This document shows positions 48,497 to 64,000 of a DNA stretch of 64,000 nt, in pieces; within the stretch, counting starts at the first letter, position 1, and every line of letters begins with the position of its first letter. Below the pieces are notes generated by a model. It was not told the DNA's origin. It saw only the letters and a list, made by a program, of their open reading frames with translations, and did no database searches. The position numbers were made by a program, and so were the translations under genes. The stretch covers positions 32,001 to 96,000 of the forward strand of contig JBBIIG010000002.1 in assembly GCA_037446635.1 (NCBI GenBank), read 5' to 3'. This stretch comes from a bacterium. Lineage in GTDB: Bacteria > Zhuqueibacterota > Zhuqueibacteria > Oceanimicrobiales > Oceanimicrobiaceae.

Positions 48497-48565
48497 CACC
48501 AGACAATTTAGAAAATATTTGGCGAGAATCAAGGGTCACGCAAAGCCGCCAAGGCGCGAAGGATT

Positions 48566-48790: not shown

Positions 48791-50065
48791 TCAGGGAAAA
48801 CGGATCAGCCGGTAAATATTGAAGCCGAGGCGGAACTCGCCGTTGGCAAAATCCAAGTTGCCGCCGCTCATGACTTGAGTTGGGGTGAGCCCCAACGAGT
48901 TGCTGATATAGACATGAAAAACATGGCCGCCAATGTTGTGCTCCAACCCAATGGTAAAGGCATCGTAAACGATTGGCTGGCCATTTTGCACGCCGGCGCC
49001 TCCCACCGGCAGCGCGTCATCCAGTCCCGAAACAATCGTACTGCCTTCCGCGAATAGCGACAGGCCTTTTAGAATCCGAAACTTTCCGCCGTAGCCGATG
49101 CTGAATATGGTCTGCTCGTTGGTTTGTGTCACATTGCCATTAAACAAAACCCCGGGATTCAGCAGCAGCGCAATGCGATTTGAGAGCTGCCGGGTCAGGA
49201 CGAGCTGAGCAAACCACGGAAAACGCTCGCTGCTGGTGCGCGAGAGAAATTGTGCAGGGTTGTTGGGGTCGGGGATTTGCTTCATGGTTAGCCACTCCAC
49301 GCCGACGAAAAGGGCGGCAGAAACCGGCACCGAGTTGTTGGTTCGTTCGCGCAGCAGTTGCCACTTGGTATTAAACTCAAAAGTGGCGTTGGTGCCGGAG
49401 CGGCCGACGGTGAACATGAGATTCTCCCGCAGAGGAAATGAAAATTCGGTGAGCATGTGCGCGCCGGCATCCAGCCCAAAAAATTGGCCGAAGCCGTTAT
49501 CGACCCGGCCCAGCCAGCGGTGCGCGATGCGATAGGAAAACGACCCTTTCGGCATGGTTTGCGCGGTTTGCAGGGTCGCCAGAGATAAGCCCACAAAAGG
49601 CTGGCTGAATCGTTTTTTGGGCTGCACCGGGACGGCATCCGGCGGCAGTGTTTTTATCCAAAGAGCGACGGTCTTCAACTCTTCTTTGGATAATGATTCT
49701 CCGCTCTTCGGCATTTTCTCGCCTTTGATGCCAGAGGCGCCAACCAATTTCATAATCAAATAACTTTTTAACGGATCGCCGGGCTTGACCAGCGACAGTT
49801 TTGGAAAATCGTTGCTGGGTTGATTCACCGTCGAGGCATAGGCAAACGATTCCGTCAGGTTAAGATCGCCGGCGGGGGCCGGGCCGGCATGGCAGCCGGC
49901 GAACGCGCATTTGGTTTCAAAAATTTCCAGCACCTTATCGGGAACACCATTCTGCGGGTAAACTAAAACCGGCGCGGCAAAAATAAGCAGGCAAAACAAA
50001 GAAGCATAAAAGGCCCCCAGCCTTTTGGACTGCACGAAAATTTTTTGCATGTTGATCGACCTCAT
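48791..50065 (-). CDS. Cytochrome c-like domain (CX4CH) fused to DUF5777-like beta-barrel
   Basis: Signal peptide; CAFAGCH...LVKPGDPLKSYL...KMP; IAHRW, GGHVFHV, FRLGFNIYR. Confidence 0.72.
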   Translation of the reverse strand: MRSINMQKIFVQSKRLGAFYASLFCLLIFAAPVLVYPQNGVPDKVLEIFETKCAFAGCHAGPAPAGDLNLTESFAYASTVNQPSNDFPKLSLVKPGDPLKSYLIMKLVGASGIKGEKMPKSGESLSKEELKTVALWIKTLPPDAVPVQPKKRFSQPFVGLSLATLQTAQTMPKGSFSYRIAHRWLGRVDNGFGQFFGLDAGAHMLTEFSFPLRENLMFTVGRSGTNATFEFNTKWQLLRERTNNSVPVSAALFVGVEWLTMKQIPDPNNPAQFLSRTSSERFPWFAQLVLTRQLSNRIALLLNPGVLFNGNVTQTNEQTIFSIGYGGKFRILKGLSLFAEGSTIVSGLDDALPVGGAGVQNGQPIVYDAFTIGLEHNIGGHVFHVYISNSLGLTPTQVMSGGNLDFANGEFRLGFNIYRLIRFP

Positions 50066-51450
50066 GATTTAAAATCCTTTTGACTTTTTTGTCTCGTTCT
50101 GGCGGTTAGATCTTGTATCCAGATTTTTGTCTTCCCTGAAAATTCTTTGGGGGGCGAGGTGAATTTTTCGCGCGACTTGAGCGAATACAGCAAATTGTCT
50201 CTAATCTCAAAAACATCCAGCACCTTCAAGCTATCGACGATGAACAAGTAGCAATTTTCCAGCAGCGCAAAATCGACGCTGCTGCCCATCGAAATCAGAT
50301 TCTGCCGACGGAATTTTTCAAAGCTCTCGAGCAGGGCCGGGGTTTCTTTCACTTTCACCAACGTTTGAATGGGCGAAATGTGCGCGGGTGTGCGATGAAA
50401 TAATTTCTCCCGCAGCCTAGGAACCGATACGATGAAAATCGCCGCGACCAGCAATAGCATCAGCGCGAATCGTTTTGCGACCGCGGTTGCGCCGATCTTG
50501 CTGGCGCCGAGCCGCGAGCGAATCAACAGCAATAAAAAGGACGCTTTGAATTTCGCCATCCCGACCCGAAAAAAGTTGGACTCGATATCGCGAATGTTCA
50601 ACGTGATGGTTTCCATCATCGGCTTTTTGGGTTTGGCTTTCCGGGAGTAGGCCTTCCGTTCTTTTTTGAGATCGGACAATAATTCATCGGTGGTGCGATA
50701 CCGTTTCTTTGGGTCTTTTTTTAATGCCTTCTCTACGATCCGCTGCAGTCCCGGCGAAACCTCGGACTTGTAGGCGGTTAAGGGCTTCTGCGATTTGTGT
50801 AAAATCGCATACAGAATCTCCTCCTCGGTTCTACCCTCGAACGGATGGTGTCCGGTCAGTAATTCGTACAATAAAACGCCCACCGAAAAAATATCCGAGC
50901 TGGGTCCCAACTCCTCGCCGCGAATCTGTTCTGGCGAAGTGTAGGGGGCGGTTCCCATGCGAACGCCGTGCCGAGTGATGCTGGTATTCTCGATTAGCTT
51001 GGCCAATCCAAAATCGAGAATTTTGACCCAGCCGTCTTTGTCGATCATGACGTTGGCGGGCTTGATGTCGCGGTGAATGATGCCGGCCTGGTGCGCCTTG
51101 CGCAGTCCGCGGCAAATTTGAATGGCGATGGCGAGCGCATTATCCACCGAAATCTTCCGCTGCTCCATCAAGCTGCACAGGCTGACGCCATCGACGTACT
51201 CCATGGCGATGTAAAATTGCTCCTGATGTTTGGCGAGCTCATGCACCGTCACGATGTTGGGATGTTTCAATGCGGCCGCAGCGCGGGCCTCGCGCTTGAA
51301 GCGATCGATCAACTGTTTATTGGAAGTGAAGTTGGAGGGCAAAAATTTAAGCGCCACGCGCCGGTTTAGAAAGGTGTCTTCGGCAAGATAAACTTTCCCC
51401 ATCCCGCCTTCATCAATTTTGCTGAGTATTTTGAAATGTGAAATAATCAT
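50062..51450 (-). CDS. Hanks-type Ser/Thr protein kinase with C-terminal TM segment
   Basis: VALK, HRDIKPAN, DFGLA, GTAPYTSPEQ; ATGA overlap with the downstream gene. Confidence 0.95.
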   Translation of the reverse strand: MIISHFKILSKIDEGGMGKVYLAEDTFLNRRVALKFLPSNFTSNKQLIDRFKREARAAAALKHPNIVTVHELAKHQEQFYIAMEYVDGVSLCSLMEQRKISVDNALAIAIQICRGLRKAHQAGIIHRDIKPANVMIDKDGWVKILDFGLAKLIENTSITRHGVRMGTAPYTSPEQIRGEELGPSSDIFSVGVLLYELLTGHHPFEGRTEEEILYAILHKSQKPLTAYKSEVSPGLQRIVEKALKKDPKKRYRTTDELLSDLKKERKAYSRKAKPKKPMMETITLNIRDIESNFFRVGMAKFKASFLLLLIRSRLGASKIGATAVAKRFALMLLLVAAIFIVSVPRLREKLFHRTPAHISPIQTLVKVKETPALLESFEKFRRQNLISMGSSVDFALLENCYLFIVDSLKVLDVFEIRDNLLYSLKSREKFTSPPKEFSGKTKIWIQDLTARTRQKSQKDFKS

Positions 51451-51603
51451 CTGGTTTTGTTGACATGAATGTTCGATTCAGAATCATCTCTTGGGCAATT
51501 TTGATACCAGCGTTTTGGACGCTCTTTTAAGCTCGGAAAAATGAATTTTTCGGTTCTCCCGTCCCGAGAATAACGAATGTGTTATACAACATTGTAAGAA
51601 AAC

Positions 51604-53280
51604 TCAATTGTTCAAAAACAATTGCAGATGCGAGCGGCGCTCTTTGTTGGGGTGAAATTGGTGGCAAGTGACGCAGCGATTTGAAATTTTGTTTGCGGAG
51701 TGGCAGCTTTGACACGCGCGAATGGTTGGAATATTTTGCGTCGCCGCGCGATCGGCTTTGAAGGTTTTGGGCAGCGCCTGCTCGAACTCGCTGAAGCGCT
51801 CCACGGAAAACCGCAGTTGGTTTTCGTTCATGGGAATTGCGGAGTGACATTCGGTGCAGCGCTTGTTCAAAATGTGGGCGCGGTGATTGAACTCCGCGCG
51901 AATGAGCACGTCTTGATCGGCCTGCACCCGCCGAATGCTGGCGTTTTCAACCACGTGACATTTCTGGCATTCCGGGCCGTCGGCGCGCGTGAGATCAAAC
52001 GCAAGCTGCCGCAGAGCCGCTCGCTGGTTTTCCGTCAAACTGGTGTTTGATTTTGCAGATGAAAAATCAAATGGCGCGGCCGTCCGGCGCGGCGACGGCG
52101 TGTCGAGTCTCTGTTTCGCCAGGTTGAGCAGCGCGTTGATTTTGTTGATCTCTCCCTTCAGTTCGCTGCGGTTCTGCAACTCGTTTGCATAAACCCGCAG
52201 CGCGCCGATGGCCTCGCTGTAAAGCGAATCCACTCGCTGCGGCGAAACCGGCCCGGCGGAATTCAGCAAATCGAACAACCCGTCCGCCGGGTAAAGTGTT
52301 TTGCGGATGCGTTTCAAATTTTCTAAAATCCACGGGTCTTTGTGAATCACCGGATTTTTCGACACCTCGCCATCTTCAGCGCGGACAAGATTGGGATTGG
52401 CGGCAAAGGTCCACGCGAGGCCCGGGCCGCCGCGCTGCTGCATCTGCCGGATGGTTTCCGCGCCCGCAGCGTTTGGATTGGCCGGATCGAACTTCGGCAA
52501 GCCCTGCACCACGGCGTCGGCTTTCAGATGACACTGGGCGCAGTGCTTGTCAAAATTAATGTCCTTGAAATTTTTGCCGTCGGGCTCCGGATTGTGGCAG
52601 TAGAGGCAAGCGGCTTCATAAAAATGGACGAAATCCATGGTTTCCGCTTTCAAGGTTTTGAACAGCGGCTCGATTTGTTCCATGCCCTTCATTTGCTGGA
52701 GGACGAATACTGTGTGACGAAGATGGGTCATCTTCAACGTCGAGTCGTCCGGAGATTGCACGCGCGCAAATTCAAACTCCGGATGTTTTTTGTTGAACGA
52801 GCCGTAGGGGTGGCAACTCAAACATTTTGCGTCCGCAACGTCCGTGATGAGGGCGTCGCGGCCGCGATGCTCGAGGTGGCACGATCGACACGGCAGTTCG
52901 CGCGCGTAATATTTCTGCAACGTGTCGTGAGAGATGCGTCGAAAATCGTTCGAGCGATACAAATAGTGAGAGGAAAAGTTGTAAATCATCAGCTCACTGG
53001 TTTTTTCATGGCAACTACTGCAAAGGGCATCCGCCGCCGAGTTGCCGGGCTGGTGGCAGGCGGCGCAGTCGGTTTCAAAATTCGCGTGGTTGGAGGAAAT
53101 CGCTCCGGTGGAAATGAAATGGCTTTTTTGGAAAATGGTGTCGAACGAAAAATAAAGCAGAATGGCCGCGCCAATTCCGCTGCCAAAGAGCACCATCGTC
53201 CGCCGCGAGGCTGGCAGAAGATAGCCGGCGCTCACCGGCAGATTGATTGGGGCGAAGGTCTTTTTTCGTTTGGGTTTCAA
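51604..53280 (-). CDS. Membrane-anchored decahaem c-type cytochrome (cytochrome c3-like family)
   Basis: Ten CxxCH motifs counted; N-terminal TM anchor; TTG start. Confidence 0.88.
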   Translation of the reverse strand: MKPKRKKTFAPINLPVSAGYLLPASRRTMVLFGSGIGAAILLYFSFDTIFQKSHFISTGAISSNHANFETDCAACHQPGNSAADALCSSCHEKTSELMIYNFSSHYLYRSNDFRRISHDTLQKYYARELPCRSCHLEHRGRDALITDVADAKCLSCHPYGSFNKKHPEFEFARVQSPDDSTLKMTHLRHTVFVLQQMKGMEQIEPLFKTLKAETMDFVHFYEAACLYCHNPEPDGKNFKDINFDKHCAQCHLKADAVVQGLPKFDPANPNAAGAETIRQMQQRGGPGLAWTFAANPNLVRAEDGEVSKNPVIHKDPWILENLKRIRKTLYPADGLFDLLNSAGPVSPQRVDSLYSEAIGALRVYANELQNRSELKGEINKINALLNLAKQRLDTPSPRRTAAPFDFSSAKSNTSLTENQRAALRQLAFDLTRADGPECQKCHVVENASIRRVQADQDVLIRAEFNHRAHILNKRCTECHSAIPMNENQLRFSVERFSEFEQALPKTFKADRAATQNIPTIRACQSCHSANKISNRCVTCHQFHPNKERRSHLQLFLNN

Positions 53281-53308
53281 GATAAATTGAGTTTAATCTT
53301 ATTTACGG

Positions 53309-53341
53309 ACTTGCCAGGCACCTTTGAGGTGCCTGGCAAGT
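53309..53341. repeat. REP-like palindrome acttgccaggcacct-ttg-aggtgcctggcaagt
   Basis: 15-bp perfect arms; related to 23209 and 24410. Confidence 0.78.
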
Positions 53342-53362
53342 TTCAAAGCTGAGGGCTGATCG

Positions 53363-55843
53363 CTAATAATAAAACGCCGCAAACAAATGAATCGCCACCA
53401 GCACCAGCAAAACAATCGCAGGCGGCAGATGCAAATAGAGCCAAAGCTTCAGAGCTTTCTGCAAAGTGTAGTGCGCGTCGATTTCCAGTTTTGATTTATA
53501 CATCGCCTCCAACTCAATCAACTTTTCGCGTTCGATGCTCGACAGCAGCGTCTTCAAAAAATCGAATTGCCGCAGCCGGCGCTGGATGCCGCCGGTGATG
53601 TCAAAAAAATAAATAAAACGGATTTTAGGCGCTCGTAGGACTGGCGCAATTGTTTTGCGATAGAAGTCCCGGACCGGCGGCGAACCGTTTTCCACCAGCT
53701 TCTCCGCATTTTTGCGGATGGCCTCGATCAATTCCGGAATCCGCTCATAAACCACTTCAATCGAAAGCGCCGAGGCGAGAATCCGCGGCAGCCATTTCTG
53801 CAAAGCCACTCCCACAATTCCGCTGATCGTAACCCACACCGATAACATCCACAGCCACCAAAACAACGCGCCGTTCGGCAAACTGAAGCCGCTGTGCATG
53901 AACACCAGCAGCAGAAACAGCGCGCCGCCGTAAACGTGAAATTGCAGCCAGGTCTTTGCCCGCCCCCATTTTTGCCGGGAAGCGGCCCGCACGTTTCGCC
54001 GGCGAACGCCGTAAAACGCGGCGCCGAGCATCAGCGCGGCGGCGGCGGCGCCGTAACTCAATCCCCAGATGTTCCCGGCATCGAATTCCGAGACGAGGGC
54101 ATTGATTAAATAAACCAGCAGGCAGATGGCGCTGGCCGCTAAAAACGCCGCTGCCCAGTTTGGAGATTGTACCAGCTTTGCCAGTTTAAAATGGTTGCTG
54201 TTTTTGCGGCGCTCGCTGCGAGACACCAGTTGCGCAAATTTGTCCATGCTCGGCACGCGCACCGCGCAGCCGTGCGGGCAGTTGCTCACACACGCCGGCG
54301 GGTGCCCGGTGTTGAAGCACAAATCACACTTCGTCGCAATTTGGGTGATCTCGTTGCGCGCCTTTTTGACGGCGGCGTGCGGGCCTAACAGCGTCTCCGT
54401 TTTCACCATGGTGATGGCGTTATACGGACATTTGTGGTAGCACGCCTGGCAGCCGATGCACAGCTCGGCGTCGATCTCCACCACGTCGCCCACGCCGGCG
54501 CGGCGAATGGCGCCGGTGGGGCAGCCGATCAAACACACCGGATCCTGGCAGTGGTAGCAAGCGCGGGTGATGAGAAAATTTTGATATTTCTCCCCCTCGC
54601 GCACGAACCGCGGCAAGCCGCCGTGGGTGTCGGCGCAGCCGCGCACACAGTCGTCGCAGCGGGTGCAGGTGTCGAGATCGATCACCAGCACGCTGTTGCC
54701 CTCGACCAATCCAGTTTCCAACGCCGTGCTCAAAAATTCTGACTCGGCGACATTGCGTTTACTGTAGCCGGCTTCCTTAACCCGCTGCGCCGACGATTCC
54801 CATAACGACTTCTGAATGTGAGGATACTGAGCCAGCAGCATCTCGAAATCAACGTGGGCAATTCGCACCAATTCCGTATTCTCCACCGAGAGGGCGGTGT
54901 AAAGCCAGTCGGTGTGATGTAACAGAAATTCGATCTCGCCCAGCACCATGCCTTTCGAAAGATAATTGACCACCAGTTCGCCGGCGCCGAATTTCTGCGA
55001 CAGTTTCACAAAACCGGACCGCACCAAATAGACAGCATCCGCCCAGACGCCCTCCTGCGCGATCACCTCGTTGCGCCGAAACGATTGCAGCTCAACCTTC
55101 TTTTTGAATTCTTCAATAAACTGATCCGAGCAGCCCTGCAACAGCGGCGTGTTTTTGAGCTGCGCCGCCAGCGAGCGCTCCACGTAAATTTGATTGAGCC
55201 GCTTTTTGAGCGCCGGCGACTTCCGTTTCATGGCCTCCAGCGCCGGCGTTCTGATTTGGATTAAAATGCACTCGCTGGCGGTTTTGGCGGTGACCGATTG
55301 CGGCCAGCCGACCGACGCGCCGGTCTCACCAAACATTTCGCCCGGGCCAAGCGACAACACACCGCCCCACGCGAGGTCAACATCCATCGAAGAAAGGAGG
55401 GTCACTTTGCGGGTCTTTTTGATCTGCGTGATCTGCGTTTGGAGAACCGTTGGACTCAGCCGCTCGAATTTGCCGTTGCCATTCGACGAAACCGGGCTGT
55501 AGATTTTCGAGCGCTCTTTATCGAAGATGGGCTTCGACAACAAATTCTGCTGTTTCTGAACGCAAATCTCCACCTGCCCTTTCACCACAAAAAAGGCGAG
55601 ATCGATGTACGAGCCCTCTTCGAACAAAACTTTCTGCTTATCCCAAACCGCGACGCAAATATCCGGGCTGATTTTTTCGAGAAACTCTAAATCGTAATCT
55701 CGAAAAATATCAAACTGCTTGAGCTTGACTGCCGGCAGACGGCTGTAGATTTTGCGGATGCCGGTCTGTTTACCGAACACCGTCCAGCGGTCCTGAAATT
55801 GTTCTTCACGCCGGGGGACACTCCGGCTCCGAACCTGATTCAT
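53363..55843 (-). CDS. Tandem cyclic-nucleotide-binding domains + 4x[4Fe-4S] ferredoxin + His-containing multi-TM domain fusion
   Basis: FGE..VTAK and LGEIE cNMP-like motifs; CTRCDDCVRGC, CYHCQDPVCLIGCP, CIGCQACYHKCP, CDLC..PACVSNCP; TM His in WLQFH..MH and WLYLH..IH; ATGA overlap at 55840-55843. Confidence 0.88.
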   Translation of the reverse strand: MNQVRSRSVPRREEQFQDRWTVFGKQTGIRKIYSRLPAVKLKQFDIFRDYDLEFLEKISPDICVAVWDKQKVLFEEGSYIDLAFFVVKGQVEICVQKQQNLLSKPIFDKERSKIYSPVSSNGNGKFERLSPTVLQTQITQIKKTRKVTLLSSMDVDLAWGGVLSLGPGEMFGETGASVGWPQSVTAKTASECILIQIRTPALEAMKRKSPALKKRLNQIYVERSLAAQLKNTPLLQGCSDQFIEEFKKKVELQSFRRNEVIAQEGVWADAVYLVRSGFVKLSQKFGAGELVVNYLSKGMVLGEIEFLLHHTDWLYTALSVENTELVRIAHVDFEMLLAQYPHIQKSLWESSAQRVKEAGYSKRNVAESEFLSTALETGLVEGNSVLVIDLDTCTRCDDCVRGCADTHGGLPRFVREGEKYQNFLITRACYHCQDPVCLIGCPTGAIRRAGVGDVVEIDAELCIGCQACYHKCPYNAITMVKTETLLGPHAAVKKARNEITQIATKCDLCFNTGHPPACVSNCPHGCAVRVPSMDKFAQLVSRSERRKNSNHFKLAKLVQSPNWAAAFLAASAICLLVYLINALVSEFDAGNIWGLSYGAAAAALMLGAAFYGVRRRNVRAASRQKWGRAKTWLQFHVYGGALFLLLVFMHSGFSLPNGALFWWLWMLSVWVTISGIVGVALQKWLPRILASALSIEVVYERIPELIEAIRKNAEKLVENGSPPVRDFYRKTIAPVLRAPKIRFIYFFDITGGIQRRLRQFDFLKTLLSSIEREKLIELEAMYKSKLEIDAHYTLQKALKLWLYLHLPPAIVLLVLVAIHLFAAFYY

Positions 55844-56994
55844 CGTTGATTGATCTGCTGGTGAATGTATTCGATGTAGTTTTTGATTTCTAACAAAATG
55901 GAATCGAGCGGCGCGTTTTGAGATTTTAGCTCGAACGGTTTGACTGTGATCGTCCTGTTCGGATTCAGCCACGGCGGCAAGCTCGGATCGACGTAAACAA
56001 ACACCGTGTCGGTTGCGCCGGCAAGCATGTCCGCGCCTTCGGGAAGCGCCGCTAATTTGACAGTGAATTCCGGAATCGGCTTGGCTTGCAGCGCGCGCTG
56101 GTACGGCGCTTCCGAGAGATCTTCGCTGCGAAGCTGGTAGTCCCAGTGTTTGGAAATGTTGTTGCGAATGCCTTTGATGTAGTCGAATCCTTCGCCGGTT
56201 GGGTGATCCGCTTCCAACAATTTCTTCTCGTTGATTTGATGGCAGTCCACGCAGGTTTTCGCGCGCGTGTTGATGTTGCGCAATTCCCGCAAACCCACCC
56301 GCAGCGCTTTTTGATAACCCGTGCGCTCGGTGCTGAGCGGATCACTCGGCGGCGTGCCTTCCTGATGAACTTCAAAATAGCCGACGCCTTTCGGCCCGGC
56401 CGCGCCGTGGCAACTCTCGCAGCTCACGCCGGTGTTGAGATTGTTGGCTTCGCGTCCGCTCACCACTTCGCCGTGGCAACTGGCGCAAGGTGAATTCGCT
56501 TTTAAATAATCCGCCGGATCCAGCCCATAGCCCTGTGCAATGCGCATCGACTTCTGCTTTTTGCGTTTCAAATTCGCCACCGAGCTAAAATGCGGATCCG
56601 CTTTCCACCAGTTGCCATCGGACTGATGGCACGTGCCGCGCTCGGTGCCGCAGGAGCGGTAGCCCAACGTTTGATATTTTTTCTGCTGGGCATCGCTGGG
56701 GCGAATCGCCGGCAAGATAAATATCCCCGAGAGCAAAACTGCGCCGGCAAGCAATGCTCGAAAAAAGCCTATCGGTGATTTAACGTTCCTCCCCCATTTT
56801 TGCTTTTTGAAAATGGGGGAGGTTAGGAGGGGGTCGACCCCCTCCCGGCCTCCCCCAAATTCCGTTCTGTGGAATTTGGGGGAGGGGAATTCTGTCCCAA
56901 AGCGCCTAGACAAACCAGTGGAGAAATTGCAGAGAAAACCTTTGCGTATCCTTTGCGGTTCTACATCTCCGCGTGAGTGGTTTTGCTTTTTCAT
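55840..56994 (-). CDS. Cytochrome c554-like multihaem protein (3 CxxCH + 1 CX6CH)
   Basis: CASCH, GVSCESCHG, CVDCH, CGTERGTCH; ATGA overlap with the upstream stop at 56991-56994. Confidence 0.85.
   Translation of the reverse strand: MKKQNHSRGDVEPQRIRKGFLCNFSTGLSRRFGTEFPSPKFHRTEFGGGREGVDPLLTSPIFKKQKWGRNVKSPIGFFRALLAGAVLLSGIFILPAIRPSDAQQKKYQTLGYRSCGTERGTCHQSDGNWWKADPHFSSVANLKRKKQKSMRIAQGYGLDPADYLKANSPCASCHGEVVSGREANNLNTGVSCESCHGAAGPKGVGYFEVHQEGTPPSDPLSTERTGYQKALRVGLRELRNINTRAKTCVDCHQINEKKLLEADHPTGEGFDYIKGIRNNISKHWDYQLRSEDLSEAPYQRALQAKPIPEFTVKLAALPEGADMLAGATDTVFVYVDPSLPPWLNPNRTITVKPFELKSQNAPLDSILLEIKNYIEYIHQQINQR
56782..56892. repeat. 111-bp double-hairpin REP element, in frame within the c554-like gene
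   Basis: cctcccccatttt..aaaatgggggagg + cctcccccaaattcc..ggaatttgggggagg; inverted copy at 60855-60966. Confidence 0.85.
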
Positions 56995-59900
56995 CTCTTC
57001 GAGAAATCTTTCTTCACAAACTGTTTCCAACCATCATCGGAGACGGTGTAGAACTCGCCGGCTTCGTTGATGTAAAATGCCCGCTGCTCATCGAGGGTGA
57101 ACGGCCGCGAGCCGATTCTCCCGAAAATGCTGACTTGATTGCCGCTCTCATCCACGGCGCGATCGCGGTCGAGGCCTTTGGAAATCGCCAGTGCCGGGCC
57201 GCGCGTTTTGTGAGTCGCGATCAGCAGCGGCTGCGGCGTGGGGCTGAATCCCAAGTGTCCGGGCGTCAGCGGCGATGTGAGTTGAATCACACGCAAACCG
57301 TTTTTGCCATCGGCGACATACGCAAACAGGCTGGCGTTGGTGGAAGCGACTTTCACGCCGCGGGCATCGTTGATTTTGCCGTTGGCGGTGAACGTCTGCG
57401 CGATGAAAATCGAGTCCGGCTTTTCGATATCAATCATCACCAGCCCCTGTTGGCCGGCCGCGACGTAGGCGTAAGTGCGGGCGCAGTAAATGTCCATCGC
57501 CTGCGACAGCGGTACAAAACTGTTGCGGACGATTTGCGGCGACTCCGGATTGGTGACGTCAATCACCTTCACGCCCTCCTCATCGCACACAAAGGCGTAG
57601 CGAAACTGAATGGCGATGCTGCGCGGCTCCTTTAAATCCGGAGGCGCAATCGTACTCACTACCTCCGGCTTGAGCGGATCATCAATGCTCACGATCACCA
57701 AACCTTTTTGGCAAAGAACATAAACGTAATTTCCCGCGATGGCCAAATTGCGTGCGCCATTTAGCACGCCATCGGGATTGAACATGACGTCCCGTTTCAA
57801 AAAATTGTTGGTGGGATCGCCGTCCGCCAGTGTCATCACGTCAACCAAAATCAGGCCCTCATAGTGATCCGTGATGTATGCGTAGCTGTACAGCGGATGC
57901 AGCGGTTTTTCCTGATTGTCGGGATTCTCCACGGCTGCTTTTCTTTTGGTGTCGATGGGCATGTTGGTGGGCAGCGCCACGGCGGTGGCAAATTTAGTTT
58001 TCACATGCGTATCCTGTCCGAACGGTGACACCGGCGCGGAGACGATGCGCTGCGAAAAAGCTTTGTTGTCGATGTTCGCCACGTCGAACACGCGGAAACC
58101 ATCCCGACCGTTGGCGGTGTAGAGATACTCGCCGCGCAGTTGCAGGCTGCGAATGTAATCGCCGCCGTGATGATGTGCGGTCTGCAGTTCCTGCTTGTTC
58201 GCGAGATGCTTTTTGAAATTGTCCGGATACGCCAGCTTTTGCAAATAGCTGCCGATCACCGCCTGCGGCTCGCCATCCTCAGTGACGGCAACCGCTGTTA
58301 AGCCATCCTTTCCCTCGGCGACGTAAACATACTTGCCCATGAAATTGACGAAGTTGGTGCCCTGCAACAGCACCTGCGCCATCCACGCGTTGTTGTCGTT
58401 GTTACTCGAAATGTGACAGTCCGTGCAGGCGCGCGTTTCCGCTTTGCGCACCGTATGGGCAAAATGCGGGTTGAACGCCTGACTGCTGTAGCCCGGCGCG
58501 GAAATCGGCGGCTGCTGCAAATAGATCTGCTCGCGGTTGGCGTTCTTCGAACTCAAGACCAGCGCGCTGCTGGAGCGCGCCGTGGTGATCTTGTTGCCCT
58601 TCGTCGTGCCATTGATGCACAGCATGAAGCCGTCGTCGCGCACCACTTGCGGATTGTAAGTCGTCCAGTTGCGGCTCTCTGTGCCCTCGAAGTGGTTCAT
58701 CGATTTTTGCCAGTTGGCTTGCTGCGGCAGGTGGCAGCCAAAGCAGTTGGTGATCCACGAGGTGTGGCAGGACTGGCATTCCATTTTTTGCGAAGCGTGC
58801 GCCAGCCGCGCTTCGTCGATGCCATCGGCGGTTTGCATGTTGCCACCCTTCGCAATCAACTTGGCGGCATACGATTTTGGATTGTACCCGCGCGAGTTGG
58901 GATCGATGGAATCCCGCACCTGGCTGATTTCCCATTGCAACGTGTCGCTCATCATCGAGCGCTGAATACGTTTGTCGCCGATGATTTCGAAACGGGCGTC
59001 GCGAAACGGCGTTTGTAGCAGCGTGAGATCGGTGCCGCCGTCCGGCGCCGCGACGCCGGAGGTTTTGAAAGTCGCGTACTCGCTGACCGTGCCGTGGCAA
59101 TCGACGCACTGAATTTCGATGGCATTGTGAAATTCGCCGTAAAGTTTGCCGTTGCCGTGTACGTCGCGCTCGAAGTGGCAATCCACGCAGTGCATGCCTT
59201 TTTCGAGATGGATATCCTTCAGATGCACGGCTTTCTGCGCAGTTCGACAAGCATCGTCGCAAAATCCGTCGTCGCCAAAGAGTGGCACCACGCCGTGAAA
59301 TTTGTGTTCGGAATTTTCCGGGATGATGTTATCGTTTTTGTCCAGCAAATTTCCCTTGCGATCTTTTTTGAACACAGCGCGGAAAATCCAGCCGTGGCCG
59401 TGATAATCGGAGAATTGCGTGTCCTGCAATTTCGGATTCAGTTTACTAACATTGGCGAGGAAGCGGCGATCCGCCCATTTGCCGCGTAACACCGCTTCCT
59501 CTGGATTGCGCTCGAGCAGCGCGCGCTTTTCTGCGGAGGAAAACTCCTGTTGTTTTTCCGGATACAACGCCTGACCGTCGGTTTCGTAGTCCCACATTTG
59601 AAAGCCATAAAATGTGTTGAGAAACGCGTTGGGCTGGTGCATGTGACAAGTCATGCACTGGCTTGAAGGGATGCTGAGGGTGAATTGATGGCGAATCGGA
59701 TGGCCTTCCTGTTTCTTGGGAAGGGCTTTGTCGCCAGTGACCCCGTAGCCGGTGTTGCCGTATTTCGCGTAAGCCCCGGCGTGCAGCGGAGAACGATCGT
59801 TGGCGTAAATCACGTGACACGCGGTGCAGCCACTGGAACGATAATCGCCGGGCTGATCGTTCGTTCCCATGAATGACAGATGCGGATCGTTGAGCCGGGT

Positions 59901-61043
59901 TTTGTGAATATTAAGCACCGGCGAGCTGATGCGAAGCTGCGTGCCGAGACCGCGGTCGCCAACTTTCATATCCGGCCGGCCAGGATCTTCCAGCGCCGGC
60001 ACGCCGATGTTCGACGGATTAATGCGCGAAATTTTTCCGCCGCGCTCAAAGGTGCGGAACATGTCGGTCACCTGGCTGATCTCCCAGCGCGGCAGCGGCA
60101 CCACAAACGGCAGCACCCCTTTGTTTCTGATTTCATCAGCCGTCGGCGGCGGCACCGTGTTGATGCGCTGCGGCGTGCCGTCGCGGGCGTAGCTCTCGCC
60201 GAGTACATAGACTTTGTTGGAGACGATGCCGTTGTTGTACGCTGCGCCGCCGAACAGAAGCGTCGAAGTTGTCATCATACTTTTTTTGACGTTCAGCACT
60301 TCCTGCGGATGACACGAGCCGCAGGTTTCATCCGCAACCCGCAAGTCTCCCGGATTCACGAACTTGATGAACTCCGGCGTTTCATCATTGAGCACGGTAA
60401 ACGATCGTTTCGGATTCGCCGACGATTCCCAAACCTCCGCGTGCTTCGGTTTCACGTGCGCCTTGTCCTGCGTTTTCGCGAGCGGATTGGCGCCGTGGCA
60501 ATCGCTGCAGCCCAACTTCTCTGCTGGCGAGGCATGCATATTTTCGATGCCGCGATGGCAAGTCACGCAGCCTTGACTTTTGTTGACGACGTCCTCCACC
60601 GCCTGCCGCACCTGCCGCCGCCCTTTGGATTTGACATCATCCGCTTTTTCCTCTTTTGAAGAGGGGTCAGCGAGGATGTCAAGCTCTTCGAGAATGGGAG
60701 TTTCCTCTTTCGATTTAAGAGAGTCGGCCTCTTGGGCACATAAATGCCCAACGAGAAGAACCATTAGACTGAAGACTATCGAGCAGAGAGCTTTTTTGAG
60801 GAAACTTGCTTTTATATGGAGATGGCTTCGACTTAGTAGCCAAATCGCAAGCGCGAATTCTCCTCTCCCAAATTCCGCCATTTGGAATTTGGGGGAGGCC
60901 GGGAGGGGGTCGGCTCCCCACCTAACCTCCCTCATTTTTAAAAAGCAAAAATGGGGGAGGAACGTTTTGGAGTGCCTTGACTGCGTCAAGGCGGTGGCGA
61001 CACAGTCGCCGCACTCCAAAGCCTTTCCAAAATGTACTTTCAT
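56991..61043 (-). CDS. Large decahaem c-type cytochrome with C-terminal LVIVD-repeat (beta-propeller-like) domain
   Basis: Ten CxxCH motifs counted; repeats YAYVAAGQQGLVMIDI, YAFVCDEEGVKVIDV; AAGGAAG RBS before ATG 61043. Confidence 0.88.
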   Translation of the reverse strand: MKVHFGKALECGDCVATALTQSRHSKTFLPHFCFLKMREVRWGADPLPASPKFQMAEFGRGEFALAIWLLSRSHLHIKASFLKKALCSIVFSLMVLLVGHLCAQEADSLKSKEETPILEELDILADPSSKEEKADDVKSKGRRQVRQAVEDVVNKSQGCVTCHRGIENMHASPAEKLGCSDCHGANPLAKTQDKAHVKPKHAEVWESSANPKRSFTVLNDETPEFIKFVNPGDLRVADETCGSCHPQEVLNVKKSMMTTSTLLFGGAAYNNGIVSNKVYVLGESYARDGTPQRINTVPPPTADEIRNKGVLPFVVPLPRWEISQVTDMFRTFERGGKISRINPSNIGVPALEDPGRPDMKVGDRGLGTQLRISSPVLNIHKTRLNDPHLSFMGTNDQPGDYRSSGCTACHVIYANDRSPLHAGAYAKYGNTGYGVTGDKALPKKQEGHPIRHQFTLSIPSSQCMTCHMHQPNAFLNTFYGFQMWDYETDGQALYPEKQQEFSSAEKRALLERNPEEAVLRGKWADRRFLANVSKLNPKLQDTQFSDYHGHGWIFRAVFKKDRKGNLLDKNDNIIPENSEHKFHGVVPLFGDDGFCDDACRTAQKAVHLKDIHLEKGMHCVDCHFERDVHGNGKLYGEFHNAIEIQCVDCHGTVSEYATFKTSGVAAPDGGTDLTLLQTPFRDARFEIIGDKRIQRSMMSDTLQWEISQVRDSIDPNSRGYNPKSYAAKLIAKGGNMQTADGIDEARLAHASQKMECQSCHTSWITNCFGCHLPQQANWQKSMNHFEGTESRNWTTYNPQVVRDDGFMLCINGTTKGNKITTARSSSALVLSSKNANREQIYLQQPPISAPGYSSQAFNPHFAHTVRKAETRACTDCHISSNNDNNAWMAQVLLQGTNFVNFMGKYVYVAEGKDGLTAVAVTEDGEPQAVIGSYLQKLAYPDNFKKHLANKQELQTAHHHGGDYIRSLQLRGEYLYTANGRDGFRVFDVANIDNKAFSQRIVSAPVSPFGQDTHVKTKFATAVALPTNMPIDTKRKAAVENPDNQEKPLHPLYSYAYITDHYEGLILVDVMTLADGDPTNNFLKRDVMFNPDGVLNGARNLAIAGNYVYVLCQKGLVIVSIDDPLKPEVVSTIAPPDLKEPRSIAIQFRYAFVCDEEGVKVIDVTNPESPQIVRNSFVPLSQAMDIYCARTYAYVAAGQQGLVMIDIEKPDSIFIAQTFTANGKINDARGVKVASTNASLFAYVADGKNGLRVIQLTSPLTPGHLGFSPTPQPLLIATHKTRGPALAISKGLDRDRAVDESGNQVSIFGRIGSRPFTLDEQRAFYINEAGEFYTVSDDGWKQFVKKDFSKR
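60855..60966. repeat. Inverted copy of the double-hairpin REP element, in frame within the decahaem gene
   Basis: Reverse complement aligns with 56782-56892 with few mismatches. Confidence 0.85.
60966..61020. repeat. REP-like palindrome TTTGGAGTGC...GCACTCCAAA
   Basis: 10-bp inverted ends with two internal hairpins, within the decahaem 5' coding region. Confidence 0.75.
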
Positions 61044-61063
61044 CACTTCCTTACGTTTGATTT

Positions 61064-62833
61064 TCAATACGTGAAGACAAAACTCGAAAACAGCGCAAAC
61101 TGCACGCGCGATGATTCATACAAATCGCGAAAGCCGCCCAGCGGCGTAAACGTGCTCACCGAAAAAGTGAAGACCGCGTTGTTGTTGAGAAACGGCCGGT
61201 ACACCACGCCGGCGCCGGCGTCGATGCCAACGTCATTGCGAATGCCGCCCTGGTTTAGAAAAAACGCCAGCGATGAAGTATCGACGAAGCGGATGTAGTT
61301 CGCGTTGATCACAAACTCGGTCTTCGGCGTGAGATCGAAATCGAAGGCGAGGTTCGCAATCATCAAACCGGGATTCACAAAGTTTGCCTGTGCCTCGGCT
61401 TTGCTGGGCCGCAAACTCGGCACCAGACTCAGCTTGTTGGTGAGATTCACGCCCAACAAACGAATGCGCTGATTGCTCCAGTAGCTGAACGGTCCGCCGG
61501 CGAAGAACGGCACATCTAAAATCGTGTCGAAGCCCTGACCGACGCCATCGAGCGGATTGGGATCGCCGGAGGAAAAGAAGCCGGACGTGCGCAGCCGCAG
61601 CCAATCTTTGTCGATCGACAATTCCAGTGCCGCCATTTGCGCGCGGATGTCGATAGGCCGGCCCGCCAGCGCATTGAAAGTATCTCTGCCGAACACTTGA
61701 TAGAACGCGTGATTGACGTTGAGCCGCCCGAGGTGGCCGTCGCCGGCCCAGCCGAGATAGTAAGCTTTGATGTCGTGCGGCTGCGTGTTGCCGATCACCG
61801 CGGGCCGCACCGGCACGCCATTTTCATCGACATAAACGCTGGGCTTGTCGTGATTATAATGAAAACTAATTTGCGTCGTGTAGCCGAGGCTCAGAAAATC
61901 CTGCTTGTACAAATTGAAAATGAACACTTCCTGATCCCGCCATTCGAACACCGTGTTCAGCTCGCTGTTGGTGTCCTTCTCCAGCAAACTGAAGTAAGCA
62001 AAATTGTACTGATAGCGATTGGAACCGGCGCTGCCAAACAGCCGCGCGCCCAAATTGAAGTCATCAAAAATAAACCCGCGAAAATCGCTTTTGAATGGCT
62101 GGATGCCGCCTTTGAACGAAATGAAATCGTAGTGCGCGCTGAGATCGAAAAGATGCTTTTCGAGAAACAGCTCCTGCAGCCCAAAGTGATCGTCGTAGCG
62201 CTTGGTGCCCTGCTGCACGTTGACGTTGACATCGTTGTTCTCTTTGCTGTCGAGATAATTGAAACTAACCGCCGCCGTCGCCTTGATTTCGAAATCGCGC
62301 GGCCGGAACGCGGTATTGCCTTTATACAGTTCCAACGACAACCGCAGATTCTCATTCATAAAAAAACGCTCGGCATCGCCGAAGAAACCCTGATTGTTCG
62401 GATCGTTCGTGCTCACTGCGCTGGGCGTCGGCACCGCGGAGGCTTCAAAAAAACTTTCCGTGCTTGCCGTAAAAATGAGGAATGTTTTCTGTCCGATGAT
62501 CGGAAAATCTCCCTTCAACACGTTTTGATTGTAGGGGTCGATGAGCCGCCCTTTGACATTCAGCTCATACGGCGCCAGCTTGATGCTGCGCCAGCGATCG
62601 GGCATTGGCACGAAGTGCGGCACCTCGCGCTGGCTGCGCTCTTGCTTGACGGAATCCGCTTTTGACAACGTCATCTCCTCCGCTGTCCCCTCTCCTCTAA
62701 GAAGAGGGTTAGGGTGAGGTCTCGGGGAGTTCAAAGCCATCAGCGGCAAACTCGTGGCTAAGTGATGTGCTAATATGGCCGAAAGAAGAAACTGGTGCAC
62801 GCGCAGTAGTTTTTGGATAATCATGATCTTCAT
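61064..62833 (-). CDS. Putative outer-membrane beta-barrel protein
   Basis: Signal-like N-terminus; amphipathic strand pattern; C-terminal FSSFVFTY aromatic end. Confidence 0.7.
   Translation of the reverse strand: MKIMIIQKLLRVHQFLLSAILAHHLATSLPLMALNSPRPHPNPLLRGEGTAEEMTLSKADSVKQERSQREVPHFVPMPDRWRSIKLAPYELNVKGRLIDPYNQNVLKGDFPIIGQKTFLIFTASTESFFEASAVPTPSAVSTNDPNNQGFFGDAERFFMNENLRLSLELYKGNTAFRPRDFEIKATAAVSFNYLDSKENNDVNVNVQQGTKRYDDHFGLQELFLEKHLFDLSAHYDFISFKGGIQPFKSDFRGFIFDDFNLGARLFGSAGSNRYQYNFAYFSLLEKDTNSELNTVFEWRDQEVFIFNLYKQDFLSLGYTTQISFHYNHDKPSVYVDENGVPVRPAVIGNTQPHDIKAYYLGWAGDGHLGRLNVNHAFYQVFGRDTFNALAGRPIDIRAQMAALELSIDKDWLRLRTSGFFSSGDPNPLDGVGQGFDTILDVPFFAGGPFSYWSNQRIRLLGVNLTNKLSLVPSLRPSKAEAQANFVNPGLMIANLAFDFDLTPKTEFVINANYIRFVDTSSLAFFLNQGGIRNDVGIDAGAGVVYRPFLNNNAVFTFSVSTFTPLGGFRDLYESSRVQFALFSSFVFTY
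62686..62720. repeat. REP-like element tcccctctcctctaagaagagggttagggtgaggt in frame in the barrel gene
   Basis: Hairpin plus GGGTGAGG tail; encodes PHPNPLLRGEG. Confidence 0.7.
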
Positions 62834-62852
62834 CTCTGGTTGCTGAAGTAAA

Positions 62853-62986
62853 TGTCATTCCCTGCCTGCTGCAGGCAGGCGCGCAGCGAGGAATCTGGCG
62901 CACAGAATCGATTGTTTTGCGAATCAGTGCGAGCGCAGTCACTGAATTCATTCTCCGTCAGATTTCTCGCTGCGCTCGAAATGACA
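62853..62986. repeat. TGTCATT..GCGCAGCGAGGAATCT / AGATTTCTCGCTGCGCTCGAAATGACA REP pair with nested CCTGCCTGCTGCAGGCAGG
   Basis: Inverted arms; the left arm is interrupted at 62861-62879. Confidence 0.78.
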
Positions 62987-63001
62987 ATTCCGACGAGGTG
63001 A

Positions 63002-64000
63002 TTACAAATCCGGGTTGCGCGGAAATTTCAAGTACGGCAGCCGCACATTGAGGTAGAAAAATTGATCGCTGCGCATCTGCATTGGCGGCTCGAAACCGAC
63101 GGCGCCGGCCGCAGCGATGTAATCATCCTGATCCACGCCGTCTCCGCTCACCCCGATGCCGCCGGCGAGCTGGCCATTTTTGTAAAGTGGAACGCCGCCC
63201 GGAAAAATCGTGATGCCGTTGCCGAACGGCGCCAGCGCGATATTCTGCTGCCAGCGGTAGTCGTTCAAAGGCAAAACCGGATCGGGAATAAACAACGGCC
63301 CCGGCTGGGGAGCGCCGCTGGTCGGCTGATCGATCCCCGGTGGAAAAAAGCGCTGGCTCAAAAATCCCACGGCGCGGGTGGTCACTGCTAAATCCTGAGT
63401 AGGTGAAAGTCCCAGCACTTGTCGGATTTGCGCGCCGAAGGGATTGTTGGGGTCGCTGAACGCCACGGCGGTGCGCGCTTTTTGTGCGGAGACGTCGTAG
63501 CTGAAGAAGGTGGCGTCGGGCGTGCGCCAAACGCCGAGCATGCGGCCATCGACGTCCGCGACGCTGATGAACACGCGCGCGGGTGAATTGAACGGCCGGC
63601 GAATCGCGGCGCGGGTTTGATTGGCCTTTGCCACCGCCTGATCGATGATGAGCTGCACATCGGTCGCGGATAAAATTTGTCCGGCGGTGACATTATAATT
63701 ATGGATGCCGTCGCCCAAATCCACCGGGCCCTGATCCGGGAAACGCACGAGATTCGGCAGCGGATAAGTGGGATCGAGCGCGCCGCGGCTGGTAACATCC
63801 GCAAACGTGAAGGTGAAATTGGCGGGCGGAGTCGGCGCAATTTGATAGAGCAACTGCACGCCGTCGATGAAAATCGTATCCGCGCGTTTCTCACTGGGGG
63901 TTGAATAACCGATGACCGCGCCCAGCGCAATGGCCTCATCGGCAATCGGGATGCCGCTGCCGCAGTCGGTGAGAAAGCTCGCCGGCAATCGCCCAACGGT
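63002..64000 (-). CDS. GlcG/HbpS-like haem-binding domain protein (5' truncated by window)
   Basis: VSAQKARTA; GGVPLYKNGQLAGGIGVSGDGVDQDD; frame open to the window end. Confidence 0.85.
   Translation of the reverse strand, partial: TVGRLPASFLTDCGSGIPIADEAIALGAVIGYSTPSEKRADTIFIDGVQLLYQIAPTPPANFTFTFADVTSRGALDPTYPLPNLVRFPDQGPVDLGDGIHNYNVTAGQILSATDVQLIIDQAVAKANQTRAAIRRPFNSPARVFISVADVDGRMLGVWRTPDATFFSYDVSAQKARTAVAFSDPNNPFGAQIRQVLGLSPTQDLAVTTRAVGFLSQRFFPPGIDQPTSGAPQPGPLFIPDPVLPLNDYRWQQNIALAPFGNGITIFPGGVPLYKNGQLAGGIGVSGDGVDQDDYIAAAGAVGFEPPMQMRSDQFFYLNVRLPYLKFPRNPDL

Follow-up and report, generated by a model that had tools for sequence, protein, structure and literature searches.

A ptd-family inner-membrane module joined to a porin and decahaem-propeller outer module in a Zhuqueibacterota genome

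The stretch of DNA analysed here, which we call the window (64,000 nucleotides of contig JBBIIG010000002.1, contig C2 of a 4.64-Mb genome that is 97% complete), ends in a cluster of minus-strand genes for multihaem cytochromes, a beta-barrel protein and a membrane iron-sulfur (Fe-S) protein. As judged by sequence comparison, this cluster is an inner module of the ptd family joined to a different outer module, which consists of a decahaem cytochrome with a C-terminal LVIVD propeller (decahaem-LVIVD), a barrel and a GlcG lipoprotein and is apparently undescribed. The decahaem-LVIVD protein is the most conserved component of the cluster. The best reading of the whole, to which we give about an even chance, is a regulated, NAD(P)H-driven export of electrons to a porin-associated multihaem enzyme; the inner half probably carries electrons from NAD(P)H out of the cytoplasm, and the outer module is predicted to act on a small molecule and not to conduct electrons to the cell surface. 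The eight genes are the following (cNMP, cyclic nucleotide monophosphate; AF2, AlphaFold 2).

63002..64000, minus strand: 3' part of a GlcG/HbpS (DUF336) protein of 528 aa, with its start beyond the window; Pfam PF03928 twice; outer module, accessory
61064..62833, minus strand: outer-membrane beta-barrel, 18-stranded and AlgE-like by AF2 model and structure match; outer module
56991..61067, minus strand: decahaem cytochrome c (10 CxxCH) with C-terminal LVIVD beta-propeller; putative terminal oxidoreductase; start uncertain, ATG 60881 or nearby
55840..57030, minus strand: c554-like tetrahaem protein (three CxxCH plus CX6CH), PtdD homologue; Pfam PF13435; predicted periplasmic carrier
53363..55972, minus strand: cNMP-cNMP-4x[4Fe-4S]-four-helix fusion, putatively di-haem b (PtdE plus PtdF homologue), by Pfam; likely start ATG 55843
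51604..53280, minus strand: membrane-anchored decahaem, PtdG homologue; 10 CxxCH, N-terminal helix 28-46; predicted wire with all haems bis-His
50062..51450, minus strand: membrane Ser/Thr kinase (Pkinase E 3.7e-58, one helix); clade-linked accessory
48791..50065, minus strand: CX4CH cytochrome-like domain plus DUF5777 barrel (PF19089); separate module outside the conserved core

Relation to the ptd cluster

The ptdABCDEFG cluster encodes a pentahaem cytochrome, a porin, an FAD/NAD(P) oxidoreductase, a tetrahaem cytochrome, a cNMP-4Fe4S protein, a ferric-reductase-like transmembrane (TM) protein and a decahaem cytochrome, and the accessible text of its description assigns it no function (Elbon, Stewart and Glass, bioRxiv 10.1101/2023.11.21.568154). 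We compared the window with five loci of ptd order (L117-L121), set by gene order, Pfam and a 5ZE8 match and not by the sequences of that paper; the 5ZE8 match reported for PtdA was reproduced in them. The window proteins match D, E, F and G of all five. The c554-like protein matches PtdD (28-32% identity, E 1e-11 to 1e-15), the Fe-S domain PtdE (42-48%, with the cNMP part at E 1e-11 to 1e-19, in 5/5) and the TM domain PtdF (26-32%, E 1e-14 to 1e-28), with which it shares a tree, while the anchored decahaem is a PtdG homologue by the same kind of match. The outer half is a different matter: PtdA and the decahaem-LVIVD protein share only an 87-column match in the CxxCH region, the PtdB-type porin has no similarity to the barrel (hhalign probability 0.13), and the PtdC-type FAD/NAD(P) oxidoreductase is absent from the window locus, a paralogous locus of the genome having an unrelated thioredoxin reductase-like (TrxR-like) protein. 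The original prediction had recognised no characterised complex here. This was too strong for the inner half, which matches the described, if functionally unassigned, ptdDEFG, and stands for the outer module, of which we found no account in the literature searched; the Ptd sequence tables (S7, S8), outside our comparison, may bear on this novelty.

The two kinds of outer module appear to be exchanged over a common inner one. A scan of 301 Alphaproteobacteria genomes (one of them the seed genome) found the TM protein in 31, decahaem-LVIVD in 14 and PtdA in 14. The TM protein was present in 14/14 of the LVIVD genomes and 13/14 of the PtdA genomes, no genome had both terminal cytochromes, none of the 270 TM-negative genomes had LVIVD, and four of the 31 TM-positive ones had neither terminal cytochrome, the other 27 having one or the other. 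A FastTree phylogeny of 100 TM domains places two LVIVD loci inside the ptd clade and a single PtdA locus inside an LVIVD clade, which indicates swaps both ways. The porin and the terminal cytochrome thus move as a pair, an indication that the barrel functions together with the decahaem-propeller. A PtdA-type profile also matched MccSep weakly (E 0.001).

Distribution and conservation

The decahaem was matched by all 7998 of the 7998 scored candidates, some perhaps via the LVIVD repeats only; the best 120 matches had 57-91% identity over at least 96% of the query, and homologues with 70-72% identity occur in candidate division KSB1 and Calditrichaeota. In a GTDB scan at least 593 of 600 stretches were confirmed. 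From the matches listed we kept 80 loci, from Pseudomonadota, Acidobacteriota, Planctomycetota, Verrucomicrobiota, Myxococcota, Chlorobiota, Ignavibacteria and others, 32 of which had at least 9 kb on both sides (the full-flank loci). Counted by hidden Markov models built from these same loci, the barrel was found in 31 of the 32, GlcG in 29, the anchored decahaem in 28, TM in 27, cNMP and Fe-S in 26 and c554 in 25; among the accessories, TrxR-like proteins were found in 20, FHA in 14, PP2C and kinase in 6 each, and DUF5777 and the CX4CH lipoprotein in none. This neighbourhood comparison bears out a gene set common to many phyla, in which six components co-occur (GlcG, barrel, decahaem-LVIVD, c554-like, cNMP-FeS-TM and anchored decahaem). 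Median identity to the distant loci was 52% for decahaem-LVIVD, 40 for the barrel, 38 for Fe-S, 32 for GlcG, 29 for c554 and 25 for TM.

At closer range the distribution of decahaem-LVIVD is patchy, as an E=0 match was found in 16 of 60 relatives. The cluster is also present in Sphingobium, Sphingopyxis, Lysobacterales and Alcanivoracaceae, Sphingobium herbicidovorans MH holding an annotated gene set, and the TM family occurs in 78 of 251 Planctomycetota genomes.

Several variants were seen along the way. Eight alphaproteobacterial loci (L137:7809-8255 and seven others) have a conserved open reading frame (ORF) of ~145 aa, with no Pfam match, between the anchored decahaem and GlcG genes. Two Planctomycetota loci (L094 and L136) carry a 15- and 17-haem cytochrome variant, one of them FHA-fused, with a long-branch TM protein. 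Inner modules with no outer module in the 20 kb fetched were found in L128, L129, L143 and L149-L151, some with FHA-fused cNMP-FeS proteins and kinases. The gene is also carried by records titled Klebsiella pneumoniae and Kuenenia metagenome-assembled genomes (L098, L096); the L098 TM protein groups with Silanimonas, and mis-binning is likely.

The inner module and its NAD(P)H input

The Fe-S domain has four 4-Cys groups, i.e., 16 cluster cysteines and one spare. The TM domain has four helices with two pairs of histidines, each pair 14 apart (His679/693/848/862), that are invariant in 56/56 members, of which 35 have weak cytochrome b561 matches; there are also weak DUF4405/Ferric_reduct matches. 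It is likely to be a di-haem b bundle. An NrfD fold would need 8-10 helices, against the four found, and there was no NrfD match among the families listed. On the predicted periplasmic side, the CX6CH of the c554-like protein is likely to be a real haem site, since it aligns with CX4CH or CxxCH in homologues, and the anchored decahaem is predicted to be a bis-His wire because it has exactly ten conserved extra histidines (35 aligned rows). Its homologues often bear a cytoplasmic FHA domain.

The NAD(P)H input, absent from the window locus, was first revealed by a paralogous cluster on contig C1 of the same genome (G000:C1:8448-24089, L019). This has genes for a c554-like lipoprotein (of SH3-c554-c3 architecture), barrel, decahaem-LVIVD (49% identity), cNMP-FeS, TM and anchored decahaem; it is without GlcG and adds FHA-FHA, PP2C phosphatase and TrxR-like flavoprotein-FHA-2Fe2S genes, the last with the full architecture TrxR-like-FHA-FHA-2Fe2S. 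Among the full-flank loci with the Fe-S protein (n=26), the flavoprotein was TrxR-like in 20 (mostly fused) and NuoEF in 4, with neither in 2. The NuoEF loci carry a NuoG-like Fe-S extension, and the ptd-order loci use an FNR-type protein. Since three unrelated flavoprotein modules have been recruited in different lineages, the partner of the inner end is likely to be the NAD(P)H pool, reached via the putative di-haem b bundle. The coupling to quinones that had been put forward earlier is weakened accordingly, as gene context favours NAD(P)H flavoproteins.

In L067:15945-19900 and related Acidobacteriota loci, a NuoEF diaphorase lies beside a NuoG-N/cNMP/cNMP/Fe-S fusion, in place of the TrxR-like input. 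In the genome of the window, a TrxR-like flavoprotein is fused to, or has as its neighbour, a NapH-like membrane Fe-S domain, as judged from sequence (G000:C61:12937-15366 and C14:13226-15304), and may be another NAD(P)H-membrane module.

The outer module

The propeller occupies mature residues ~750-1140 of the decahaem-LVIVD protein (Z about 30 in the structure search), and fold searches with this protein returned the propeller only. Outside the haem motifs, twelve histidines are kept in at least 96 of 99 sequences, including an HxH motif, together with a Met/His106 column. With 13 candidate ligands the protein has more than its 10 haems would need, whereas the anchored decahaem has just 10, and we read this surplus as enzyme-like. 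A homologue with 28 haems (P0131) has its 18 extra haems fused N-terminally, which suggests that the N-terminal haems are the input end. None of the 7 long homologues checked was a barrel-decahaem fusion.

The original prediction was to fail if the cytochromes matched a known enzyme; PDB and profile comparisons gave no full match to NrfA, ONR or HAO. An identity with NrfA or octahaem nitrite reductase was rejected (no CxxCK, two short haem-pair matches only, E 3e-5), as was one with ExtM (NF040943; 94 bits against an 800-bit cut-off, E 5.8e-27). Nor did any true relative emerge when the PDB sequences were searched with profiles of the decahaem, the barrel and the TM protein.

That the 589-aa protein would fold as a barrel was supported by a confident AF2 model (predicted local distance difference test, pLDDT, 90.5; predicted template modelling score, pTM, 0.88) in which 18 strands were counted from the listed elements. 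Its closest structure is AlgE (Z 27.3, root-mean-square deviation 2.9, 365 aligned), followed by Occ porins; MtrB and OmbB were not among the top 50 structural matches, from which their exclusion does not follow. Related clusters in Atlas searches were unnamed or called alginate-export family. The barrel has 12 conserved Arg/Lys positions, and its gene directly precedes the decahaem gene in nearly all loci. In one locus (L115:5419-7725) the barrel has an N-terminal tetrahaem domain.

Many GlcG homologues have lipobox-like N-termini, judged by eye. In the second domain of the window protein, K370/S481/D488 correspond to K57/S114/D121 of the EfgA ligand pocket, as given in the accessible part of its description (PMC8153426), and are kept in 74/74/72 of 77 sequences; residues of this type are widely conserved in DUF336, and the identity of the ligand does not follow from them. 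The haem binding originally ascribed to this protein finds no support, as no histidine is conserved above 47/77. In PduOC, as far as the accessible text goes, the haem ligand is His18, near the N-terminal helix (PMC4923194), a column that was not mapped exactly here.

Regulation

The arginine of a cNMP cassette binds the phosphate. It is kept in 39/47 LVIVD-locus proteins from outside the clade of the window and in 15/15 scored of 19 ptd-like proteins, and in 0/13 of the window clade, whose members share WPQ[SA]xTA; the two cassettes of the window protein end in WPQSVTA and WLYTA. The cyclic-nucleotide control proposed earlier is thus weakened for this copy by the lack of that arginine in 13/13 clade members. 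At the level of the family, the links to cNMP and phosphorylation control hold up, through nearby cyclase, kinase, PP2C and FHA genes. Genes for CHASE2/class III cyclases occur in 7/100 stretches (L017-L116). A kinase is found in 10/13 of the window-clade neighbourhoods fetched, frequently accompanied by genes for FHA and PP2C proteins, against 6/32 of the broad loci; kinase matches in this genome number 24. We infer that a shift from cNMP to phosphorylation control may have taken place in the window clade.

The DUF5777 protein had been counted as a member of the cluster, and this could not be maintained: it was found in 0/80 distant loci and adjoins the cluster in four same-family genomes only. 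It has a paralogue on contig C63, where a small CX4CH lipoprotein and a CX4CH-DUF5777 barrel form a pair of their own (G000:C63:12453-14281; also C51:11349-11975). At the window locus the two CX4CH halves (L001:2847-3329 and window 48791-50065) flank the cluster.

Proposed mechanism and alternatives

How could such a chain work? A flavoprotein would oxidise NAD(P)H, here in trans, the TrxR-like-FHA-2Fe2S gene of the C1 locus being the candidate. From the motifs, electrons would then cross the membrane via four [4Fe-4S] clusters and two b haems, as in NADPH oxidase (NOX)/ferric reductase or cytochrome b561. Next, the bis-His decahaem anchored in the membrane would, together with the c554-like carrier, deliver them to the N-terminal haems of the decahaem-propeller, predicted to be periplasmic, which would reduce a small, probably anionic substrate let in by the 18-strand porin, with the DUF336 lipoprotein as a possible ligand binder or sensor. 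Control of the flux would fall to cAMP/cGMP in most lineages and to Ser/Thr phosphorylation with FHA domains in the window clade. There is a precedent in the periplasmic multihaem enzyme MccSep, which the accessible account describes as a polysulfide reductase encoded beside the porin ExtI. A broader generalisation, possible but one that we lean against, would make this a widespread modular class of bacterial machines in which NAD(P)H electrons leave across the inner membrane by a quinone-free route, under the control of cyclic nucleotides or phosphothreonine. Three flavoprotein inputs and two porin-plus-multihaem termini would be interchangeable in it; the decahaem-propeller would be a multihaem enzyme of a novel type, bearing a His-rich site (YHGHGW) and acting on an envelope substrate, in aerobes and anaerobes alike.

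Some observations weigh against regulated electron export to a porin-associated enzyme. There is no flavoprotein gene in the window locus, and a TrxR-FHA orthologue was found in only 2/5 same-family genomes tested with this query. The haem-domain model is unreliable (AF2, 24 sequences, pLDDT <50 over most) and no active site is visible in it; the surplus conserved histidines of decahaem-LVIVD could be structural. The protein also has no CxxCK, and its 99 sequences show no further conserved cysteine, features that are typical where catalysis by multihaem proteins is known. The barrel also carries many conserved acidic residues. The absence of alphaproteobacterial genomes with both LVIVD and PtdA (0 against 5.9 expected if independent) is to be read with the reservation that kin are not independent.

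One alternative is a porin-cytochrome conduit for extracellular electron transfer, as also proposed for Ptd, in which the cytochrome threads or caps the barrel, the propeller lies at the surface and the partners are minerals, humics or cells. The adjacency of the barrel and decahaem genes, the unbroken chain of about 24 c-haems and the barrel-tetrahaem fusion all speak for it, and in the sources accessible to us LVIVD repeats are described as surface-associated and a putative conduit porin, Geobacter ExtB, is also predicted at 18 segments (PMC6148476), which counts against our own reading as well. However, MtrB, in the text available, has 26 strands and the barrel 18, its best structural matches are solute channels, the conserved core is without a multihaem lipoprotein, and the decahaem is far more conserved than its wire-like partners. 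The hosts include Sphingobium, Sphingopyxis, Lysobacterales and Alcanivoracaceae, none of which is known as a metal respirer. We therefore regard a surface conduit as disfavoured by the model of the barrel, and unlikely. Of the cytoplasm-to-surface conduit first predicted, the redox chain from cytoplasm to envelope is supported, and the MtrAB-type surface conduit is weakened by the 18-stranded, AlgE-like barrel.

It is also conceivable, though improbable, that the di-haem b exchanges electrons with quinone, or that oxidation of a periplasmic substrate sends electrons inward, to quinone or to NAD(P)+. The four-His pattern occurs in cytochrome b too, and the Fe-S domain resembles DmsB/NrfC/HycB; a Ferrigenium preprint, in its accessible part, proposes inward flow for an architecturally similar trio of FHA-nonahaem, TM and Fe-S proteins (10.64898/2026.01.22.701106). 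That different lineages have repeatedly equipped the cytoplasmic end with one of three NAD(P)H modules argues otherwise, as do the four helices without an NrfD match among the families listed. Least probable of all, we believe, is a system for redox or ligand sensing, in which a molecule recognised by the outer module would be signalled along the chain to the cNMP/FHA/kinase machinery with no bulk flux. The DUF336 proteins EfgA and HbpS are sensors, according to the accessible literature, the pocket is kept here, and genes for CHASE2 cyclases, kinases, PP2C and FHA proteins turn up repeatedly in the neighbourhood; but there is no conserved transcription factor or output domain, and more than 20 haems with a dedicated NAD(P)H input suggest turnover.

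Gene layout and neighbourhood

The eight co-oriented genes and their domain labels were recovered as predicted, with ORF positions and Pfam in agreement, as were the 23 CxxCH motifs (10+3+10) and the two atypical ones, CX6CH in the c554-like and CX4CH in the DUF5777 protein; a motif count found no CxxCK in the cluster proteins. The three ATGA overlaps are those of LVIVD with c554, c554 with cNMP (using ATG 55843) and kinase with DUF5777, and of the other junctions three leave 168, 82 and 153 nt between the genes and one may be a TTGA overlap. The GlcG gene is present as stated, although what was read of it is truncated by the window end, the full product having two HbpS domains. Upstream of the cluster there is a ninth co-oriented gene, for a 160-aa CX4CH lipoprotein, and a divergent FHA-FHA gene. 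Two cytochrome genes are affected by a palindromic repeat, found by a repeat search of the genome.

60855..60966, no strand assigned: palindromic repeat copy within the 5' end of the LVIVD ORF
56782..56892, no strand assigned: palindromic repeat copy within the 5' end of the c554-like ORF

This ~110-nt repeat has about 30 sites in the genome (about 32, on 20 contigs) and is in-frame open at both cytochrome 5' ends. Because it sits in these 5' parts, the true starts of the two ORFs are uncertain, and so is what one of the ATGA overlaps signifies. Further short palindromes, at 62881-62975 and near 53300, are likewise repeated across the genome. A promoter and terminator scan returned counts in keeping with chance (14 vs 9.1; 33 vs 26.4). 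Just downstream, at 47021-48532, lies an aminoglycoside-phosphotransferase-like/RapZ C-terminal fusion unrelated to the cluster. Elsewhere in the genome, a 50-kb island (G000:C20:6770-55535) holds 13 multihaem genes, more than half of the genome's 24.

Comparison with known systems

A 1200-residue decahaem kept at about 50% identity from Pseudomonadota to KSB1-like lineages, with no solved relative and no description found in the literature searched, would now be taken to indicate extracellular electron transfer, and our evidence suggests that tallies made on this basis may be mistaken. The module exchange with ptd offers a framework in which both systems can be tested, and two of the hosts, Sphingobium herbicidovorans and Sinimarinibacterium flocculans, are in culture. 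It would be unusual, if true, for an electron-transport chain to be gated directly by a second messenger.

The closest system is ptd itself, with homologous D, E, F and G in the same D-E-F-G order and a complete set of porin, terminal multihaem and NAD(P)H flavoprotein. The differences are the unrelated decahaem-propeller, AlgE-like barrel and DUF336 lipoprotein in place of the PtdA pentahaem (beta-sandwich) and PtdB, the replacement of FNR-type PtdC by TrxR-like or NuoEF proteins, and, in the window, fused E and F with degenerate cNMP pockets. The NHC cluster of Ferrigenium straubiae (10.64898/2026.01.22.701106) resembles the homologues seen here in architecture, with an FHA-bearing anchored multihaem beside TM and 4Fe-4S proteins; as described in the accessible text, it is set apart by nine haems, five predicted helices and no outer module. 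Going by the accessible accounts, the Tenderiales Uet cluster was rejected, as its composition is other and its LVIVD protein separate, while Geobacter extHIJKLM combines a porin, a lipoprotein, a periplasmic multihaem enzyme and a membrane cytochrome b/Fe-S unit, ExtM being the decahaem's best named family match. Unlike it, the window lacks a selenocysteine/Cys site and has a different porin and membrane module and an added propeller domain. The DUF336 fold family links the lipoprotein to EfgA, HbpS and PduOC, with the EfgA pocket kept in its second domain, but here the protein is tandem, presumably exported as a lipoprotein and without a well-conserved histidine to bind haem. In MtrCAB/Pcc a beta-barrel gene also adjoins a decahaem gene and there is a periplasmic multihaem relay; here the barrel is 18-stranded and AlgE-like, the decahaem is a 1200-aa, enzyme-like protein, and the input appears to be of NAD(P)H type instead of a CymA-type quinol dehydrogenase. 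For the membrane crossing, the parallel is with NOX, ferric reductase or MsrQ-Fre and cytochrome b561, in which a di-haem b, four-His transmembrane wire is fed by an NAD(P)H flavoprotein, whereas in the present system 4x[4Fe-4S] and cNMP domains are interposed and the output is to c-type multihaems.

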